Below are positions 9,127 to 57,243 of a DNA stretch of 64,000 nt, in pieces. Origin of the DNA: a virus (Duplodnaviria > Caudoviricetes); the IMG/VR virus record IMGVR_UViG_3300043812_000026. One strand, given 5' to 3'. A program made the position numbers and the translations under genes. Below the pieces are notes generated by a model. The model was given only the letters and a program-made list of their open reading frames with translations, was not told the origin of the DNA and did not search any database. The number at the start of each line of letters is the position of its first letter. The stretch's first letter is position 1.

Positions 9127-9381
9127 TTATTTTAGTTTGTTAAATTCTTCAATTCTATCAATTCTATTAATTAGTTTGATAACTAAATTATTAGTGATTC
9201 CATTGGCTTGTAACTGTTCCTGCTCCTTTGGTGTAAGCAATTGCCAACTATCGTTAACAATTAGATTTTGTGGAAAAATGTTAGCATTATCATGTACAGT
9301 CTGTAAACTGATACTAGCATTAGTTGCTTCCCTTACCTTGTTAGCTAAATCATTCAGAACATTTTTAATATCATTAGTCAT
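9127..9381 (-). CDS. Early hypothetical protein, paralog of 12564-12836
   Basis: Shared motif VN(D/N)SWQL(L/M)TP(K/R)EQE...RI(D/N)R. Confidence 0.8.
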   Translation of the reverse strand: MTNDIKNVLNDLANKVREATNASISLQTVHDNANIFPQNLIVNDSWQLLTPKEQEQLQANGITNNLVIKLINRIDRIEEFNKLK

Positions 9382-9448
9382 TTTTATAACTCCCTTTCTT
9401 TATTACATTATAATAATAACATTGTTGGTTTAGATTGTCAATAGTTTT

Positions 9449-9505
9449 TCTAAATAATTAAGAGTTTAAGCTTAACTCTCAAAATAAATCCTTGTTTCTT
9501 ATTAC
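9449..9505 (-). ncRNA. Repeated non-coding hairpin unit, copy A
   Basis: GUAAUAAGAAACAAGGAUUUAUUUU-GAGAGUU-AAGCUUA-AACUCUU-AAUUAUUUAGA directly after a promoter. Confidence 0.5.
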
Positions 9506-9755
9506 ACTTTTATAATAGCATACTTTTAACATAATGCAAGCCCTAATTTTAATTTTTATTGATTGATTTTAGCAATTATAGCACCTACTAGATAAACAAT
9601 AACTAGAATAGCCCTAATTTTCCATGTAAGCTATTCTGAGGCGTTTTATCATTGTTTAGGTATAATCTATCATTAAAGAATAAAAATGAATTATACGGGG
9701 TTATATAAAGAAATAGGGCTATAGGATAATCAAGTTTCTTTTTTCTAAATAAGTA

Positions 9756-12080: not shown

Positions 12081-12136
12081 TCTAAACACGTAAAAGTTTA
12101 AGCTCAACTCTTGAAATAATCCTTGTTCCTTATTAC
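12081..12136 (-). ncRNA. Repeated hairpin unit, copy B
   Basis: AAGAGUU-GAGCUUA-AACUUUU (C>U change keeps a G-U pair). Confidence 0.5.
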
Positions 12137-12180
12137 ATTATTATAATAACATTATTGTGTTATATTGTCAATAGATAATA

Positions 12181-12534
12181 TTAAAAAATTGAATAAGGTT
12201 TGAAATAAATACCTGCAGGCGTTTGTTTATAACTTTTTAATTCTTGTTGAATAGGTAAAGGGTAATCGTTGAACAAGTCTTTAATAGCATTCTCACCATT
12301 AACCAATAAATACTCTTCTTGTAGCGTATCTTCTGGATAATAGCCTAATTCTAGCTTATTAGCTAATTCATTAAGGTTAGTACTTGACCCTTCAACGTTG
12401 CCTTCCCAATCAGTTAAAACGTGTTCATAAGTAACTGAATAAAGTTCTGCATTTTTGTAGTCATTAGCCTTTGAATAAACAAAATGCTTGTAAAAACGGG
12501 AATCACCATACTCTGGTAGTTTGTAGATTTTCAT
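12181..12534 (-). CDS. Early hypothetical protein
   Basis: 117 aa; repeat-type RBS without its own promoter. Confidence 0.75.
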   Translation of the reverse strand: MKIYKLPEYGDSRFYKHFVYSKANDYKNAELYSVTYEHVLTDWEGNVEGSSTNLNELANKLELGYYPEDTLQEEYLLVNGENAIKDLFNDYPLPIQQELKSYKQTPAGIYFKPYSIF

Positions 12535-12563: not shown

Positions 12564-12836
12564 TTATGCTTCTAATCGATTAATCCGATCAGCTAATTTT
12601 TTAGCTAACTCCCAGCTTGAACCGCAAAGCAGAACTTCTTCTTGTTCCCGTGGGGTCATTAATTGCCACGAGTTATTGACTACGAGAACGTGTTCAACAA
12701 TGTTAACAGGGTCATCAATTGCTTTATAGTCAATCATCGCCCGTACCTTAAGATAGCGGGAAACCATACCAGCCAATTCATGGAATTTGTCGCAAGCGTA
12801 AATATTGACTTCTTGTTGTTCAGTTAAACGTTTCAT
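12564..12836 (-). CDS. Early hypothetical protein, paralog of 9127-9381
   Basis: Start MKRLTEQQ at the repeat RBS; shared SWQL.TP.EQE motif. Confidence 0.8.
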   Translation of the reverse strand: MKRLTEQQEVNIYACDKFHELAGMVSRYLKVRAMIDYKAIDDPVNIVEHVLVVNNSWQLMTPREQEEVLLCGSSWELAKKLADRINRLEA

Positions 12837-12904
12837 TTTGATAACTTCCTTTTCCTTATTACAATTATATAATAACATTGTTAGTTATTATTGTCAACCC
12901 TTTT

Positions 12905-12960
12905 TCTAAATAATTAAGAGTTTAAGCTCAACTCTTGAAATAATCCTTGTTCCTTATTAC
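12905..12960 (-). ncRNA. Repeated hairpin unit, copy C
   Basis: Sits alone between two tandem promoters (12990 and 12892). Confidence 0.5.
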
Positions 12961-13008
12961 ACTTTTATAATAACATTATTGTGTTATATTGTCAATACTA
13001 ATTACATA

Positions 13009-14429: not shown

Positions 14430-14486
14430 TCTAAACACTTAAGAGTTTAAGCTCAACTCTTGAAATAAATCCTTGTTCCTTATTAC
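14430..14486 (-). ncRNA. Repeated hairpin unit, copy D
   Basis: AAGAGUU-GAGCUUA-AACUCUU. Confidence 0.5.
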
Positions 14487-14530
14487 ATTATTATAATAAC
14501 ATTGCTAGTTATTATTGTCAATAGATAATG

Positions 14531-14936
14531 TTAAAAAATTAGCTTAAAAATATTAGTAATATAATTATCTTTTAAGTCTAGTATATTATTACGATAATAT
14601 AGATTGACACCATCAACACCAAGGTAATCATGTAAGATTGTAGAATTAACATTTTCTAAAAAAATATACTTCTCACTTGCATCCATCCAGTTAAACAACC
14701 ATAAAGCAATAGGCGTTTCATCATTATCATGGTTATCGTACCAGTCATCGAGTTCAGTCCAGCACTCACGAAGTCCAGTTTCATCTTCTTCCATGAAAGC
14801 CATCGAAGTCACCATCGTATAAATCGTTAACTGTATCATTAACACGATTTTCAAGGTCAATAGCGCTTAAGGCTTGAACTTGCGCACTCTTTAATTCCAT
14901 TTGATTAATAACATTCATGATTTCTTCATTAGTCAT
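14531..14936 (-). CDS. Acidic early protein (~134 aa) broken by one extra base at ~14800
   Basis: MTNEEIMN...DGDFD joins AFMEEDETG after removing one G (GATGGCT to GATGCT); start at the repeat RBS. Confidence 0.7.
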
Positions 14937-15004
14937 TTTTATTACTTCCTTTCCTTATTACATTATTATAATAACATTGTTAGTTATTATTGTCAACCCT
15001 TTTT

Positions 15005-15061
15005 TCTAAATAATTAAGAGTTTAAGCTCAACTCTTGAAATAAATCCTTGTTCCTTATTAC
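15005..15061 (-). ncRNA. Repeated hairpin unit, copy E
   Basis: First unit of the early block, between two tandem promoters. Confidence 0.5.
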
Positions 15062-15287
15062 ACTTATTATAATAGCATACTTTTAACGAAATGCAAGCCC
15101 TAATTTTAATTTTTATCTGGTTTGGTAACTATAACCCCTACTCACTCAACAGATACACAATTTTTTAGATTATTTTCTTCATATAATAGCAAATAGGACA
15201 AATTTAACACGCTTATAAATACCACACTAATCAATAGAAGTCAAGGCAAAACAACACATTTTTTAATCTGTCTTTTTTCTTAAAAAA

Positions 15288-16780: not shown

Positions 16781-17495
16781 TTAGTTTAAGCTTAACCCAG
16801 CATTGTTTAATTGTCTAATTAATTCTTTACCATCTTTAGTTGCACCAATCTGATTAACAATCTGGTTTACTCGCTTATCAATTTCATTTAAGGCTTCTTC
16901 TTGTTTATCTTTAGGAATGTATCGAACAAAAATTTCCTTTAGTGCAGTCATTTCAGACTCTTTAATTAATTGGTACTGCATAAGAGCTTCCGCAGTCAAA
17001 CCTCTTGTTCTGCTACCGAAGTATTTAGCATGAAGACTTAGGGCACTCATTAATGTTTTAGGGTCAATAAATTCAGACTCCTCAATAGTTTTTATACCCT
17101 TGTCAATAATCATTTCCAAGGCTTGATCCTCAGAATATAACTTTCTTACTGGACCAGTTGCAGAGTTGCTTACTACTGGTTGTTGACTTTGACTTTTAAG
17201 TTCATTAGTTTTACCAGTAAAGCCAACAATCTTATTACTGTCTACATCATCAATAGAATTCTTTTCTCGCTTATCCATTAACTGTTCTAATGGAATATTT
17301 TGTTCTTGTGATTCTTTAATTCTTTTCTTAAGTTTAGTAAGGTTTCCCTTAGCCATTTTATAGCCTTTGGAATTTAAATAGCGAATGATATAATCATAGC
17401 TCATTTGTTGTTCCATTAGTCCCGATAACCTTACTAAAAATAGCCTTATTGTTATAAAGCTCTTTTAAGCTTAGTGATTTTAAGTCTGTAGCCAC
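16781..17495 (-). CDS. Conserved phage protein with possible N-terminal HTH (~237 aa), broken by an extra G at ~17422
   Basis: AGGAGG RBS plus GTG at 17495; MATDLK...KVIG joins LMEQQMSY after removing one G. Confidence 0.7.
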
Positions 17496-18057
17496 TCTAA
17501 GCCCTCCTAATTGATTTTAGTATAATTTATCATGAACAAATTAAAATCGCTAAAACAGGCTCTTATAGCCTAATTTGAGCATATATAAATTGAGTTTTAA
17601 CCTAGATAGGAATGTTTTAAAAATCGGTTCTTGCTTACTGTCTGTAAGTATCTTCTAATCGTAGTCCTAACTAGGCTCTGTTTATAGTTTAACTCAATAA
17701 ATTTAAATATATGCTGAATTATAGCCATTTTAAGGAGTTTTAGCTGATTTTAACCCACTTAAAATAAGTACACTAAATTGTGTGTTATTCTTGGTTTTCA
17801 AAAATTAATATAGTGAACAAAAGCTAATGAAAATGTGAATACTTTTTCTGGTACTCAAAAATTAATATAATTCTACATACAAAACTGTAGACAAAAAGGA
17901 CTTTGAATAGCCTTAAAACCACTCAAAATCCCTATGTTTAGCGTCTATGATAATTAATTAGGATTGGTAAAGAAGCACCAGTTACAAACCCTAATGCAGT
18001 AGTTAACTCTAGCATTTGCACATGAGGCAAACCTAAAACATAGCCAATCAAATAACC

Positions 18058-18230
18058 AGCAAATACAATACCTTGCCGTCAACTACCTAGCACTAAAGTA
18101 CTAGGCTTGTAACTCACAATTAGTTATCTAGCTAATTAGAAGTACAAACATTATTAGTATCTAATAACTCCTTCGTAACGTGGTTACATTGGGCTGGTTG
18201 ACAACAACCTCTACTATTAACATATCAGTC
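18058..18230 (-). ncRNA. Putative omega/reRNA of TnpB #1 with flanking guide GGCAAGGUAUUGUAUUUGCU
   Basis: Non-coding region between the tnpB stop and the RE, plus 3' flank; 5' end uncertain. Confidence 0.65.
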
Positions 18231-19445
18231 AATAGCGTTAATTATTTCAAATTTAGGATTAGGATTACCAGTAATATACTGTTTCCCAAGATCATATAAG
18301 TTTATAGCACCAATCCGATCATCATTAGTCTTAAAACCGCAATGGTCACAGATATATAGGTGTAATTTATGATTACGGTTATCCTTTCTAATTTGTCCAC
18401 ATCTAGGACAGCGTTGGCTTGTATATTGTGCTGGCACCTCTAGTACAGTTGATCCTACTAAGTTAGCCTTATATTTTAACTTTGTTTCTAAATCATAGAA
18501 TGCCCACGAATGTAAATCTCTAATATTATCCTTAGACTGCATTCTTTGTTCAAAGGAAACATCAGTTAAGTCTTCTAAGACAAATAGTGTATTTTTACCA
18601 CAGTGGTCAATAAGTGTCTTCGACAAACAATGATTAACATCATTCATCCAGCGGTTCTCTTTTTGACCTAGTTTCTTTAATTTGTGCTTAGCAGACTTAG
18701 TACCACATTTTTGCAATTGTTGTCGTAAGTATTGATACTTCTTACGTCTATAAGCAATTGTCTTACCATTAAAGAACTTAGTATTACCTTGTTCATCATA
18801 GAGAGTCATGATCTGTCGTAACCCACGATCTATACCAACAATATGTTGGTTATTATCCTTAGTCCAATCTAGGCACTCCCGTTCATAGGAAATATGTAAA
18901 TACCATTTACCTTGATTATGAACTAACTTAGCTCCACCCAGTTTAACTTGGTCATTAATAAGAATATTAATGTAAGTTTGGTCGTAATCAACCTTAATTC
19001 TTTTGCCAATAACATTCATGGAAATTTGTGTTGCATTCTTGACAAATGAGTAATTAGATTGACGAACATAATCAGCCTGTGGTCGCTTAAAATTAATTGG
19101 TTTTTGCAACCAACCTAAGTTTCGATATTGCTTATACCACTTACCAGTATTCTTATCTTGATAATGATAGGGATGCTGTTTTATCTGTGTTTCTACGGTT
19201 TTATATCTAGCTACCACAGTCCTAAAAGTAGATTGAACCATCAATGAATTTAATTCACTATTAGATCGTAACGGATAGTACATTTCTTTTTGAAATTCTT
19301 TCCTATTAGGCTTGAAATAGCTATCAAAATACCATTGACTTACAATGTTACAAACTCGTTGATATTCCTTAGATACTGCTTTAAGCATACCAGCCTGTTC
19401 TTGGGTAGGATATAGTCTAACTTTAGCAGTTAAATTTTGTATCAT
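18225..19445 (-). CDS. tnpB: TnpB RNA-guided endonuclease
   Basis: N-term KVRLYPTQEQ; RuvC I GIDRG, II VLEDL, III DDRIGAIN; Zn finger CPRC...CDHC. Confidence 0.93.
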   Translation of the reverse strand: MIQNLTAKVRLYPTQEQAGMLKAVSKEYQRVCNIVSQWYFDSYFKPNRKEFQKEMYYPLRSNSELNSLMVQSTFRTVVARYKTVETQIKQHPYHYQDKNTGKWYKQYRNLGWLQKPINFKRPQADYVRQSNYSFVKNATQISMNVIGKRIKVDYDQTYINILINDQVKLGGAKLVHNQGKWYLHISYERECLDWTKDNNQHIVGIDRGLRQIMTLYDEQGNTKFFNGKTIAYRRKKYQYLRQQLQKCGTKSAKHKLKKLGQKENRWMNDVNHCLSKTLIDHCGKNTLFVLEDLTDVSFEQRMQSKDNIRDLHSWAFYDLETKLKYKANLVGSTVLEVPAQYTSQRCPRCGQIRKDNRNHKLHLYICDHCGFKTNDDRIGAINLYDLGKQYITGNPNPKFEIINAID

Positions 19446-19467
19446 ATTATCACCTCTTTTCTTTAAT

Positions 19468-19506
19468 CACTAATTATATTATACAGTTTGATTAAAGCAT
19501 TGTCAA
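19468..19506 (-). promoter_or_regulatory. Consensus sigmaA promoter inside the IS left end, driving tnpB
   Basis: TTGACA-atgctttaatcaaactg-TATAAT. Confidence 0.8.
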
Positions 19507-19646
19507 ATATAAAAAAGAGATAATTCATCTCGTCACTAAAGTAACGAGTTTTCTCATCTCCTTAATTCATAAAAAGCTATAAACAACCGTCATTATAAGG
19601 GTCATTAACAACCAATTATTAATTAGCTTTTTCATCTGCGATTACC

Positions 19647-19982
19647 TTATTTCTTAGCTGTAGTAGTTGTCTTTTTAGCTGATGTTCTAGTAACTTTCTT
19701 AGTTGCTGTCTTCTTAGGCTTAGGTTCTTCTTTCTTTAAGGGCAAGAATCCCCACTCAGTATCATAAATCCCATGTTCTACGACTTTAACATTCTTAAAA
19801 TCTGCTGTTAATTGTACAGTATAGGACTTGATAACACCAGTATTAGGTTCTTTAACTCTGAAAGTAGGCAAACCATTAAGGCGATTGTATTCTTGGTCCT
19901 TAGCTCTAACTTCATACTGCTTAAAAGCCAAGCTGTCAATCAATTCATATGTTTTCTTTTCAACAATCCGTTTATTAATCAT
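19647..19982 (-). CDS. Hypothetical protein with K/T-rich basic tail
   Basis: 111 aa; AAGGAGAG RBS. Confidence 0.75.
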   Translation of the reverse strand: MINKRIVEKKTYELIDSLAFKQYEVRAKDQEYNRLNGLPTFRVKEPNTGVIKSYTVQLTADFKNVKVVEHGIYDTEWGFLPLKKEEPKPKKTATKKVTRTSAKKTTTTAKK

Positions 19983-19984
19983 TT

Positions 19985-20551
19985 TTATCTCTCCTTGTAT
20001 TTACGTCTAATATTTTCTTGCTTATTCTCGTGTAATTGTACCTTACGGGACACCTTTTTCTTACCTATTTTGCGTCCTTTACCGTAACCGGGGTTTTTAT
20101 GAGTAACTCTGCTATCCAGAGAGTCATGAATATTAAAAAAGTCACGTGAAGTGGTACGATAGCGATAATTATACATAATTGTAATATAGTTTTCAGATAA
20201 GACCTGTGCAGTAATGTAAAGTTTACCATTAATCATTGCCCCAGTCCTTACTTGGTATATTTCAGTAGTGGTTGAAATAGTACCTTTCTGATCTATCTTT
20301 TTTAGCTGTAGTAGTTTTAAGTCAATCTTTTCATACCTAGAGACCAATTCCAGACCATACTTTTCTGCGTTGTATAGGTCCTTTTTACTGGCTTTATTAA
20401 TCTTAGTAAAGAAACCCTCTAAGTAATATCCTCTTTTACTATTTAAAAACCCTGCGCCGGTTAGCGACAGACCTTTGATGCCACTTTCGTTTTTCTGCTT
20501 TGCTATGAAACTCACCACCTGTTGTAGTATCGTGTGTATAGATATTGCCAA
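19985..20551 (-). CDS. Conserved basic phage protein (start uncertain)
   Basis: ORF track; annotated TTG start overlaps the upstream gene and lacks an RBS. Confidence 0.6.
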   Translation of the reverse strand: MAISIHTILQQVVSFIAKQKNESGIKGLSLTGAGFLNSKRGYYLEGFFTKINKASKKDLYNAEKYGLELVSRYEKIDLKLLQLKKIDQKGTISTTTEIYQVRTGAMINGKLYITAQVLSENYITIMYNYRYRTTSRDFFNIHDSLDSRVTHKNPGYGKGRKIGKKKVSRKVQLHENKQENIRRKYKER

Positions 20552-21164
20552 AATGGTAACGTTGTAAAGATTTTTTAGAATCTAACATACCTTTGATATA
20601 AAGACTGGCAATTACTTTTTGTTGATTATCCCTATTAAACATCTCGCCAAATAGATTTTCTGCTTCTACCCGTCTACGCTTTTCTCGGATATGAGTTTTA
20701 GCATTAAGGATAGCATTAAGTTCGCTAGACCATAAAATGGAAGTAGTCCCTCTTAAAGTTACTTTAGGCGAAGGTTCAGCCTTTTTAATCATTCCTGTAA
20801 TTGCTTGGTCTTCAAATTGCTCATAGCTAATAATACCTACACAACTTAATTCTGGATTACTTTCAATCAGCTCTTTTACTTTTTTAACGTGGGAGTCGTG
20901 GCAATAAACATAAGTATATTTACAAACTCTTATATAATCTGCTAACTGATGAGGAAGTCTTCTGAGAGTATCATATTCAGTTTTAATTTCAATTCCAATG
21001 ATACCCTTATTACTACTAAACAGTAGGCAATCAGCAATTGTTTTCCAGTTAATTGTCTTTTCGTAGATAATTAAGCTGTTACCAATTGGACCATAACGAT
21101 CAAATAGGTTTTTATTATGTAAGATACTGTTTTTAATCTCATCTTCCATTAATCGTTTCATCAC
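20439..21164 (-). CDS. PD-(D/E)XK nuclease-like protein (sce7726-like)
   Basis: IADCLL...GIEIKTEYDTLRRLPHQLADY. Confidence 0.7.
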   Translation of the reverse strand: MMKRLMEDEIKNSILHNKNLFDRYGPIGNSLIIYEKTINWKTIADCLLFSSNKGIIGIEIKTEYDTLRRLPHQLADYIRVCKYTYVYCHDSHVKKVKELIESNPELSCVGIISYEQFEDQAITGMIKKAEPSPKVTLRGTTSILWSSELNAILNAKTHIREKRRRVEAENLFGEMFNRDNQQKVIASLYIKGMLDSKKSLQRYHFGNIYTHDTTTGGEFHSKAEKRKWHQRSVANRRRVFK

Positions 21165-55777: not shown

Positions 55778-55940
55778 TAATATTTACTGCTTTTAATTTG
55801 AACTTCCCCCACTTAGCTAACCCTTTGGTTTAACACTTGAAGTGGGGGATTCTGGGAACACTTAGTAGTATTTAGGATCTTACAAGTGTATTCACTAAAC
55901 CTAACTTACAGAACTAAGCTCTTTTACCATGGCTAGTCCC
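55778..55940 (-). ncRNA. Putative omega/reRNA of TnpB #2 with flanking guide AUUAAAAGCAGUAAAUAUUA
   Basis: Structured non-coding region between the tnpB stop and the TTCAA end. Confidence 0.6.
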
Positions 55941-57243
55941 TAGCCTTAATTTTCTTTAATTCTTTTAATCCTCTATTTAGAATATTAATTGAAGCATTAA
56001 TATCTCTGTCATGGTGAGTATTACATTTAGGGCAAGTCCATTCTCTAATTTCTAGTGGTTTCTTGCCAGAGTGGTAACCACAATTAGAACATATTTGTGA
56101 AGTATAGTTTGGTGAAACAACTACTAATTGTTTACCATACCATTTACATTTATACTCCAACATTTCTCTAAATAAATACCAACTGTTATTAGTAATACTC
56201 TTAGCTAAATGATGATTTTTAAGAAGGTTCTTGGTTTTCAAATCCTCTATTACAATCACATCATAATCCTTAACTAATTCAGTAGTAACTTTTTGTAAGT
56301 AATCCTTCCGCTGATTAGCTATCTTAGCTTGGTATCTAGCTTTCTGCTGTCTAGCTCTCTGCCAATTAGAATAATCATCTAACTCCATTTTTGTGTCTTT
56401 ATGATTATGATTCCATTGCCTTACTCTAACCAAAGCTCTGTGTCTACGTTTACTAAATTTAGATTGAGCTTTATTAGCTTGTTGTTCATACCAACCAGCT
56501 TCAAACTTAGAGTATTTATAACCATCACTAGTAATAGCTAAATCAGCTACTCCCATATCTATCCCAACAATAGCACCAGTCTTTTCCAAAGATTGAATAT
56601 TAGGGTCATCAACAATTAAAGATAAATAATATCTACCTGTAGGTTCTAAAGAAACAGTATATCTTTTAATCTTTAGTCCTTCTAATCTAGTAGTTTTGCT
56701 AGTTTTAATATAACCAAGCTTAGGTAGCTTCATTCTTCTCTTAGCAATTACTTTACAAGTAGATTTTCCCGTATAAGACTGTTTAGTAGCTTTACGAGAT
56801 TTAAATCTAGGATAACCACCTTGATGTTTAAATAACATTTTAAAAGATTGGTCTAAATAATGGTTTGATACCTGTAAGCTTGATGAGTCACTTTCTTTTA
56901 AAAACGGATATTCTACTTTTAGTTGCTTTACTAAGTAATTCATACCATATTCATTTACAAACTTAGAACTAGGATTATTCTTATATCTAGCTTTAGCCAT
57001 GTCTAGCATAGTGTTCCAGATAAAACGATTATTACCAAACATTTGCCATAGCTGATCCCGTTGTTTAACATTAGGATACAAGCGTAATTTAATTCCTTTT
57101 AGCATTTATTTCACCTCTTTTCTTTAATTTATGTCTTTATTCTAACTTCAATAATTTTAGAGGGCAAGGCAAAATTTTAATTTAAACAAAGACGATTCAT
57201 CACCCATTTATCGAAGTGGGAGTATTCTCGCCAATTATAGCTA
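55798..57243 (-). mobile_element. IS200/IS605-family TnpB-only element #2
   Basis: LE after TTTAT with GAGAATACTCCCACTT...ATGGGTGATGAAT; RE hairpin CCCCCACTT...AAGTGGGGG ending GAAGTTCAA; LE boundary may be off by 1-2 nt. Confidence 0.8.
55933..57105 (-). CDS. tnpB: TnpB RNA-guided endonuclease
   Basis: KLRLYPN...FGNNRFIWN; GYPRFKS; RuvC GIDMG, VIEDL, HDRDINAS; Zn finger CSNC...CPKC. Confidence 0.95.
   Translation of the reverse strand: MLKGIKLRLYPNVKQRDQLWQMFGNNRFIWNTMLDMAKARYKNNPSSKFVNEYGMNYLVKQLKVEYPFLKESDSSSLQVSNHYLDQSFKMLFKHQGGYPRFKSRKATKQSYTGKSTCKVIAKRRMKLPKLGYIKTSKTTRLEGLKIKRYTVSLEPTGRYYLSLIVDDPNIQSLEKTGAIVGIDMGVADLAITSDGYKYSKFEAGWYEQQANKAQSKFSKRRHRALVRVRQWNHNHKDTKMELDDYSNWQRARQQKARYQAKIANQRKDYLQKVTTELVKDYDVIVIEDLKTKNLLKNHHLAKSITNNSWYLFREMLEYKCKWYGKQLVVVSPNYTSQICSNCGYHSGKKPLEIREWTCPKCNTHHDRDINASINILNRGLKELKKIKARD

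Follow-up and report, generated by a model that had tools for sequence, protein, structure and literature searches.

A phage gene in the 64,000-nucleotide stretch of viral DNA analysed here (the window) is split by a tnpB-only element of the IS200/IS605 group (IS1341 type), and the element is in our judgement probably a recent non-autonomous insertion, for which we infer expression, cutting by TnpB, drive and the source of TnpA. The element occupies positions 18078-19568 of the minus strand (1,491 bp) in what is a homing-type arrangement, with filled and empty alleles in near-identical genomes and with the empty allele as the predicted target of the nuclease. The original prediction had read the locus as an IS200/IS605 tnpB element, and the protein domains, the D-E-D triad, the hairpins, the insertion pattern and the guide-RNA structure all agree with that reading.

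The boundaries of the element were determined by comparison with sister contigs. G001 (IMG/VR UViG 3300043781_000034) aligned with window positions 17000-18077 at 96% and with 19568-20600 at 100%, and the two aligned pieces met at a single base, which gave an insert of 1,491 bp with a one-base ambiguity (a G that could belong to 18077 or to 19568). When the insert was compared by blast with all loci retrieved, eleven copies or relatives emerged; the right end was TAGTTGAC in every copy and the next base varied, the base directly 3' of ...GTTGAC being G, A, G, G, C, A, A and C among the copies and relatives. This variable base fixes the right end at 18078 and thus the element at 18078-19568, so that the ends originally predicted are borne out to the base by the G001 alignment and the invariant right end together. 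An alternative boundary, shifted by one base and giving the target TTTATR, was ruled out by the same variation.

The uninterrupted junction (TTTAT/GGCAAGG...) was intact in three contigs: G001, G002 (UViG 3300043781_000024), which comes from the same metagenome as G001, and OBLI01000024.1, a metagenome contig of 141 kb. The original prediction had looked to related phages for this junction, and the three sister contigs supply the IS-free allele. Over 1.4-5.4 kb the window flanks aligned with G001 and G002 at 94.7-98.8% identity, and empty and filled alleles differed by the exact element alone, with no target-site duplication, as expected from the predicted insertion 3' of a short AT-rich motif without duplication. 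A scan of metagenome contigs with the 18-nt guide described below returned 29 matches, comprising 28 chance matches in unrelated DNA and one true empty allele. A single filled allele of the site at 18078-19568 was found. No deposited phage genome matched the region in a megablast search, and a distant blastn search gave faint matches to Lactobacillus phages only.

The carrier looks like a large Lactobacillaceae myovirus of the virulent type. Genes for a DnaB-like helicase, a primase, a UvsX-like recombinase, SbcC/SbcD-like nucleases and baseplate proteins lie in the window, and by helicase similarity the nearest isolate is LfeInf, a virulent phage of Lactobacillus fermentum (52% amino acid identity). 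Neither the window nor G001-G003 yielded a tyrosine integrase, which is compatible with, though no proof of, a virulent lifestyle and agrees with the lytic setting proposed at the outset. An intergenic repeat family (approximately 100-190 nt, 82-95% alike) also occurs in this genome, at window positions 9371-9559, 12081-12197, 12833-12997, 14430-14541 and 14925-15078, and the sister contigs carry members of this family too.

The gene interrupted by the element and its surroundings comprise the following features.

19569-19635, minus strand: 5' part of the split membrane-protein gene, 22 codons
17938-18077, minus strand: 3' part of the split gene, in frame once rejoined
17896-17933, minus strand: terminator-like hairpin directly 3' of the split gene

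When the flanks were rejoined they yielded an open reading frame of 207 nt (68 amino acids plus stop), which was uninterrupted in G001 and G002 (L006:8298-8504, minus strand, and L005:1346-1552, plus strand); the expectation that deleting the element restores a 68-residue membrane-protein gene thus held. The protein is hydrophobic over its entire length and matched no PHROG family. In the filled allele a stop codon arises across the junction (19569-19567). Because a terminator-like hairpin follows the split gene, the gene is the last of its transcription unit and the insertion lies at the end of the unit. The two flanks differ in their history: the flank on the left-end side is identical to G001 for 204 nt, whereas the flank on the guide side (window 17961-18059), compared with loci L005, L006 and L241, carries nine substitutions in 117 nt that are absent from all three empty alleles. 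Since translation comparison showed that only one of these nine substitutions alters an amino acid, the guide-side flank represents a diverged functional allele and not decay after the insertion. The mosaic pattern of similarity therefore shifts at the insertion point, a shift that recalls phage homing endonucleases and that, coming from one filled allele, is no more than suggestive.

The element itself and its target site comprise the following features.

19569-19573, minus strand: target motif and predicted TAM, TTTAT, directly 5' of the left end
19529-19548, minus strand: left-end subterminal hairpin, 8-bp stem with a T.G pair and TTTA loop, kept in all copies
19478-19506, minus strand: sigma-70-type promoter of tnpB, TTGACA-17-TATAAT, 12/12 match to consensus
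18225-19445, minus strand: tnpB, predicted RNA-guided nuclease of 406 amino acids, Pfam OrfB_IS605 and Cas12f1-like TNB
18086-18105, minus strand: right-end hairpin, 8 bp with a T.G pair and TTTA loop, within the guide-RNA scaffold

The left- and right-end hairpins, which had been predicted to match, have in common a 10-nt core, TACTTTAGTG; their outer stems differ with complementarity kept, and comparison of relatives shows covariation in the right-end stem. At the left end the window copy has two private changes within its first 6 bases. TTTAT, the motif named in the original prediction, precedes six of the seven independent insertion sites, which is not attributable to chance given a frequency of ~0.0035 per position in the window (33.7% G+C). 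The exception, L012, is a short contig of 1.5 kb whose left flank lacks TTTAT and may be an assembly artefact. The promoter is as perfect as had been proposed (12 of 12 positions, 17-nt spacer) and is kept in copies of 85-99% identity.

Both Pfam domains of the TnpB protein score above their cut-offs (PF01385, 52.6 bits; PF07282, 66.5 bits). In an alignment of 32 homologues, D206, E291 and D375/D376 were invariant, as were the four zinc-ribbon cysteines (CxxC...CxxC), and in a profile alignment to solved Cas12f structures D206, E291 and D376 fell on the three RuvC motifs, so that the D-E-D triad was confirmed to be intact. Profile searches placed the protein nearer to Cas12f-like proteins (E = 1.5e-27) than to ISDra2 TnpB (E = 4e-7), and Foldseek with the AlphaFold model (pLDDT 84.8) gave the same order (AsCas12f, E = 1e-21; ISDra2 TnpB, E = 6e-16). 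Relative to the commonest variant the window TnpB has three conservative changes, none of them at a conserved position. The dN/dS values of tnpB were 0-0.18 among copies of ~99% identity and 0.25-0.32 against copies of 85-88% identity, and judged by these ratios the gene is under purifying selection.

The nearest bacterial relatives of this TnpB, found by profile scan, are from Ligilactobacillus (61-65% identity). A search of species-representative genomes with exact peptide patterns revealed no close bacterial copy, the relatives from the profile scan being at most 65% identical, and neither scan recovered a bacterial source of the 99% identical copies. Among deposited phage genomes the nearest relatives are the 'transposase' genes of Lactobacillus phages iLp1308 and MLC-A (50% amino acid identity), which are temperate-type phages of 34-42 kb and only distantly related. 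Two phage-like contigs, L253 (ENA contig k141_242406, 145 kb) and L252 (a GCA_011262095.1 contig, 150 kb), carry TnpB relatives that are 63-65% identical.

The RNA that would guide the nuclease was sought in the 150 nt between the tnpB stop codon and the right end, aligned with 15 relatives (45-88% protein identity).

18078-18227, minus strand: putative guide-RNA (omega/reRNA) scaffold, holding the right-end hairpin and the terminal TAGTTGAC
18058-18077, minus strand: predicted guide, the flank just 3' of the right end, taken as 16-20 nt

RNAalifold and pair counting identified four helices, namely a 5-bp stem, an 8-bp long-range stem, the right-end hairpin and a 6-bp pseudoknot in which the loop of the first stem (GUCAAC) pairs with the terminal GUUGAC. 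The scaffold cells were paired in 97.7% of cases and 12 pairs showed compensatory changes; none of 500 shuffles equalled the score, shifting the helix partners as a control lowered pairing to 25-49%, and the fold z-score was -3.9. A covariance model built from the alignment scored 111 bits in the window at the expected site alone and found two sites in G003, both linked to tnpB, and with this model no stand-alone guide-RNA copy of the first-element type was found in the window or in G001-G003. Rfam contained no family for the RNA, even at E up to 1. On comparative grounds the structure of the predicted RNA, pseudoknot included, is conserved and covarying. The guide occurs once in the window, where it is preceded by TAGTTGAC and not by TTTAT, and the window has no TAM-adjacent match to it; the empty sites of the three sister contigs match guide nucleotides 1-18 and differ at nucleotide 19, so that the guide predicted from the right flank was recovered over 18 nt in the sister phages.

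What is known of IS200/IS605 elements and of TnpB predicts that the ribonucleoprotein cuts TTTAT plus flank, i.e., the allele of the sister phages, and the following course of events would account for the locus. A Y1 (HUH) TnpA acting in trans, most likely that of the host, would paste the single-stranded element 3' of TTTAT and thereby split the dispensable 68-residue membrane-protein gene at the end of its transcription unit. The consensus promoter of the element would drive tnpB, the 150-nt 3' untranslated region would become the guide-RNA scaffold, and transcription running ~16-20 nt into the flank would supply the guide. The TnpB-RNA complex would then cut DNA bearing TTTAT and the flank sequence, which is the uninterrupted allele of the sister phages, and would spare its own locus because TAGTTGAC occupies the place of TTTAT. 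During a mixed infection the rival genome would be cut and repaired from the IS-bearing genome, so that the element is copied in (gene drive, or non-restorative homing); alternatively, the cut might destroy the rival. For repair, the UvsX-like recombinase and SbcCD-like nucleases of the phage would be available.

The first step calls for a transposase that the element lacks. There is no room for TnpA within the element, which is therefore not autonomous in the manner of IS605 or IS608, and no Y1 TnpA was detected either in G001-G003 (PF01797, 217 kb of sister contigs) or in the 64-kb window (tblastn with four Ligilactobacillus TnpA proteins). Transposition thus requires TnpA in trans, which is probably supplied by the bacterial host; Y1 TnpA genes do occur in those Ligilactobacillus genomes that hold the closest bacterial relatives of tnpB. 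A search for the hairpin and end motifs of the element beside Ligilactobacillus TnpA genes did not find the cognate TnpA and returned one loosely similar left end (L. ruminis). Copies 99.2-99.4% identical to the element were present at no fewer than four other sites, and at least three of these copies lie in the same phage lineage, as evidenced by flanks with 90-99% identity to G001-G003; tnpB is missing from G001 and G002 and present three times in G003. Because copies occupy several different sites, ordinary TnpA-dependent transposition is ongoing, with or without homing. In G003 a left-end-like hairpin of another IS605-type element (L007, 5380-5420) lies ~130 nt upstream of a copy of the present element. 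The failure of the L007 flank at this copy to align with G002 points to nested insertions there, or to successive ones.

The window also contains a second, unrelated tnpB-only element (55798-57243, minus strand, 1,446 bp) that ends in ...GTTCAA. Its TnpB (390 amino acids) carries HTH_OrfB_IS605 at the N terminus and shows 26% identity with the TnpB of the first element across ~100 amino acids. The second element was inserted directly after TTTAT and is exactly absent from G001 (64702/64703) and from G002. Pieces of 100 nt that are 83-88% identical to the guide-RNA scaffold of this second element (window 55850-55949) occur without an adjoining tnpB at the following positions.

G001:C1:9842-9941 (locus L109): scaffold-like piece
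G003:C1:36168-36267 (locus L108): scaffold-like piece
G003:C1:16832-16931 (locus L107): scaffold-like piece

One such piece is thus present in G001, whose assembled 69 kb holds no tnpB. From their similarity to the scaffold, the tnpB-less pieces may be stand-alone guide RNAs. In L253 a relative of the second TnpB type lies 3 kb from the relative of the first type, and both TnpB types therefore look endemic among these large Lactobacillaceae phages.

The main competitor to the drive mechanism is a passive-passenger reading, in which a host TnpA dropped a selfish IS into a dispensable gene and TnpB keeps to its canonical task of re-copying the element after TnpA has excised it in a TnpA-bearing host, with no part in phage competition or in spread between phages. 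Near-identical copies at several sites indicate that transposition and not site-specific homing made the present distribution, and transposition alone can explain presence and absence among the sister phages without drive; that both elements in the window use TTTAT is expected if one host TnpA family moves both, and one filled allele of the site was found. Against this, TnpB is intact and under purifying selection with no TnpA in the 64-kb window or in 217 kb of sister contigs, the sister phages retain a perfectly targetable site and two of them share a metagenome with another carrier of the element, and plasmid data show that drive is automatic wherever one cell holds both filled and empty copies (PMC11870625). 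On balance we consider a purely passive role less likely than the main reading, though it keeps an appreciable probability.

It is far less probable that TnpB has become inactive or domesticated, either as a nuclease-dead, TldR-like RNA-guided regulator or as a decaying relic. Some phages do carry repressors derived from TnpB (bioRxiv 10.1101/2023.11.30.569447), but here a protein of full length (406 amino acids) retains an intact D-E-D triad and zinc ribbon, both transposon ends are kept, the position is polymorphic and the guide merely equals the insertion flank. Least credible of all is an IS607-type element moved by a serine recombinase, for which the sole support is that the source annotations of two Ligilactobacillus homologues read 'IS607 family transposase', since the subterminal hairpins with a common loop and the insertion 3' of a pentanucleotide follow the single-strand pattern of IS200/IS605 and the junctions have no common dinucleotide (TTTAT/G... 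versus ...GTTGAC/G).

A recent insertion of a non-autonomous IS1341-type element, the reading we prefer, can be set beside three known systems. Like ISDra2 of Deinococcus radiodurans and IS608 of Helicobacter pylori, the element combines OrfB_IS605 with a zinc-ribbon TNB domain and a RuvC D-E-D triad, has subterminal hairpins at both ends, was inserted 3' of an AT-rich motif without duplication and has a pseudoknotted guide-RNA scaffold that overlaps the right end and takes its guide from the flank. It differs from them in that it lacks TnpA, has the target TTTAT and not TTGAT or TTAC, resides in a virulent-type phage and specifies an RNA with no Rfam match. The drive of IS605 through plasmids likewise involves a multicopy replicon with filled and empty alleles, a guide that records the insertion site and targets restricted to IS-free copies, with no need for TnpA; in the present case, however, the replicon is a lytic-type phage, the rivals are natural sister phages and the drive is predicted. 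As with the homing endonucleases of T4-like and SPO1-like phages (SegF, I-TevI and I-HmuI; marker exclusion), the nuclease gene is absent in relatives, the nuclease is predicted to cut the allele of those relatives and the similarity pattern shifts at the insertion; unlike those enzymes, recognition here would be by guide RNA and not by protein, and the nuclease gene lies in a transposon with its own ends that disrupts a gene.

The mechanism is not new, having been shown in plasmids and proposed for phages, and what this locus adds is a well-documented clean case. The expectation that TnpB cuts the IS-free site builds on Karvelis 2021 and Meers 2023, as summarised in PMC13565253. TnpB drives IS605 through plasmid populations independently of TnpA (Mears et al., PMC11870625), and drive between co-infecting phages has been proposed as theory under the term 'transposon non-restorative homing' (review, PMC13565253). 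An A-1(L) cyanophage preprint speculates on the spread of TnpB between phages and goes no further, and the literature searched yielded no experimental case of TnpB drive between phages.

What TnpB does in nature has been established in two settings, the retention of transposons in chromosomes and their drive through plasmid populations. The present locus is a ready natural test of RNA-guided homing: near-identical phages hold one filled and three natural empty alleles, the target motif and the guide are defined exactly, the target gene is dispensable and the phage brings recombination genes of its own. A further gain is a compact nuclease (406 amino acids, predicted) that is nearer to Cas12f than to ISDra2 TnpB, with TTTAT as its predicted TAM and with a guide-RNA scaffold that has been defined. 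We tentatively propose, as a possibility that may extend to the phage group as a whole, that TnpB elements without a transposase are kept as RNA-guided drives or marker-exclusion weapons in co-infecting Lactobacillaceae phages of ~140 kb, in which stand-alone guide RNAs might re-aim the resident nucleases; if true, these elements would be an RNA-guided counterpart of the homing endonucleases of T4 and SPO1.
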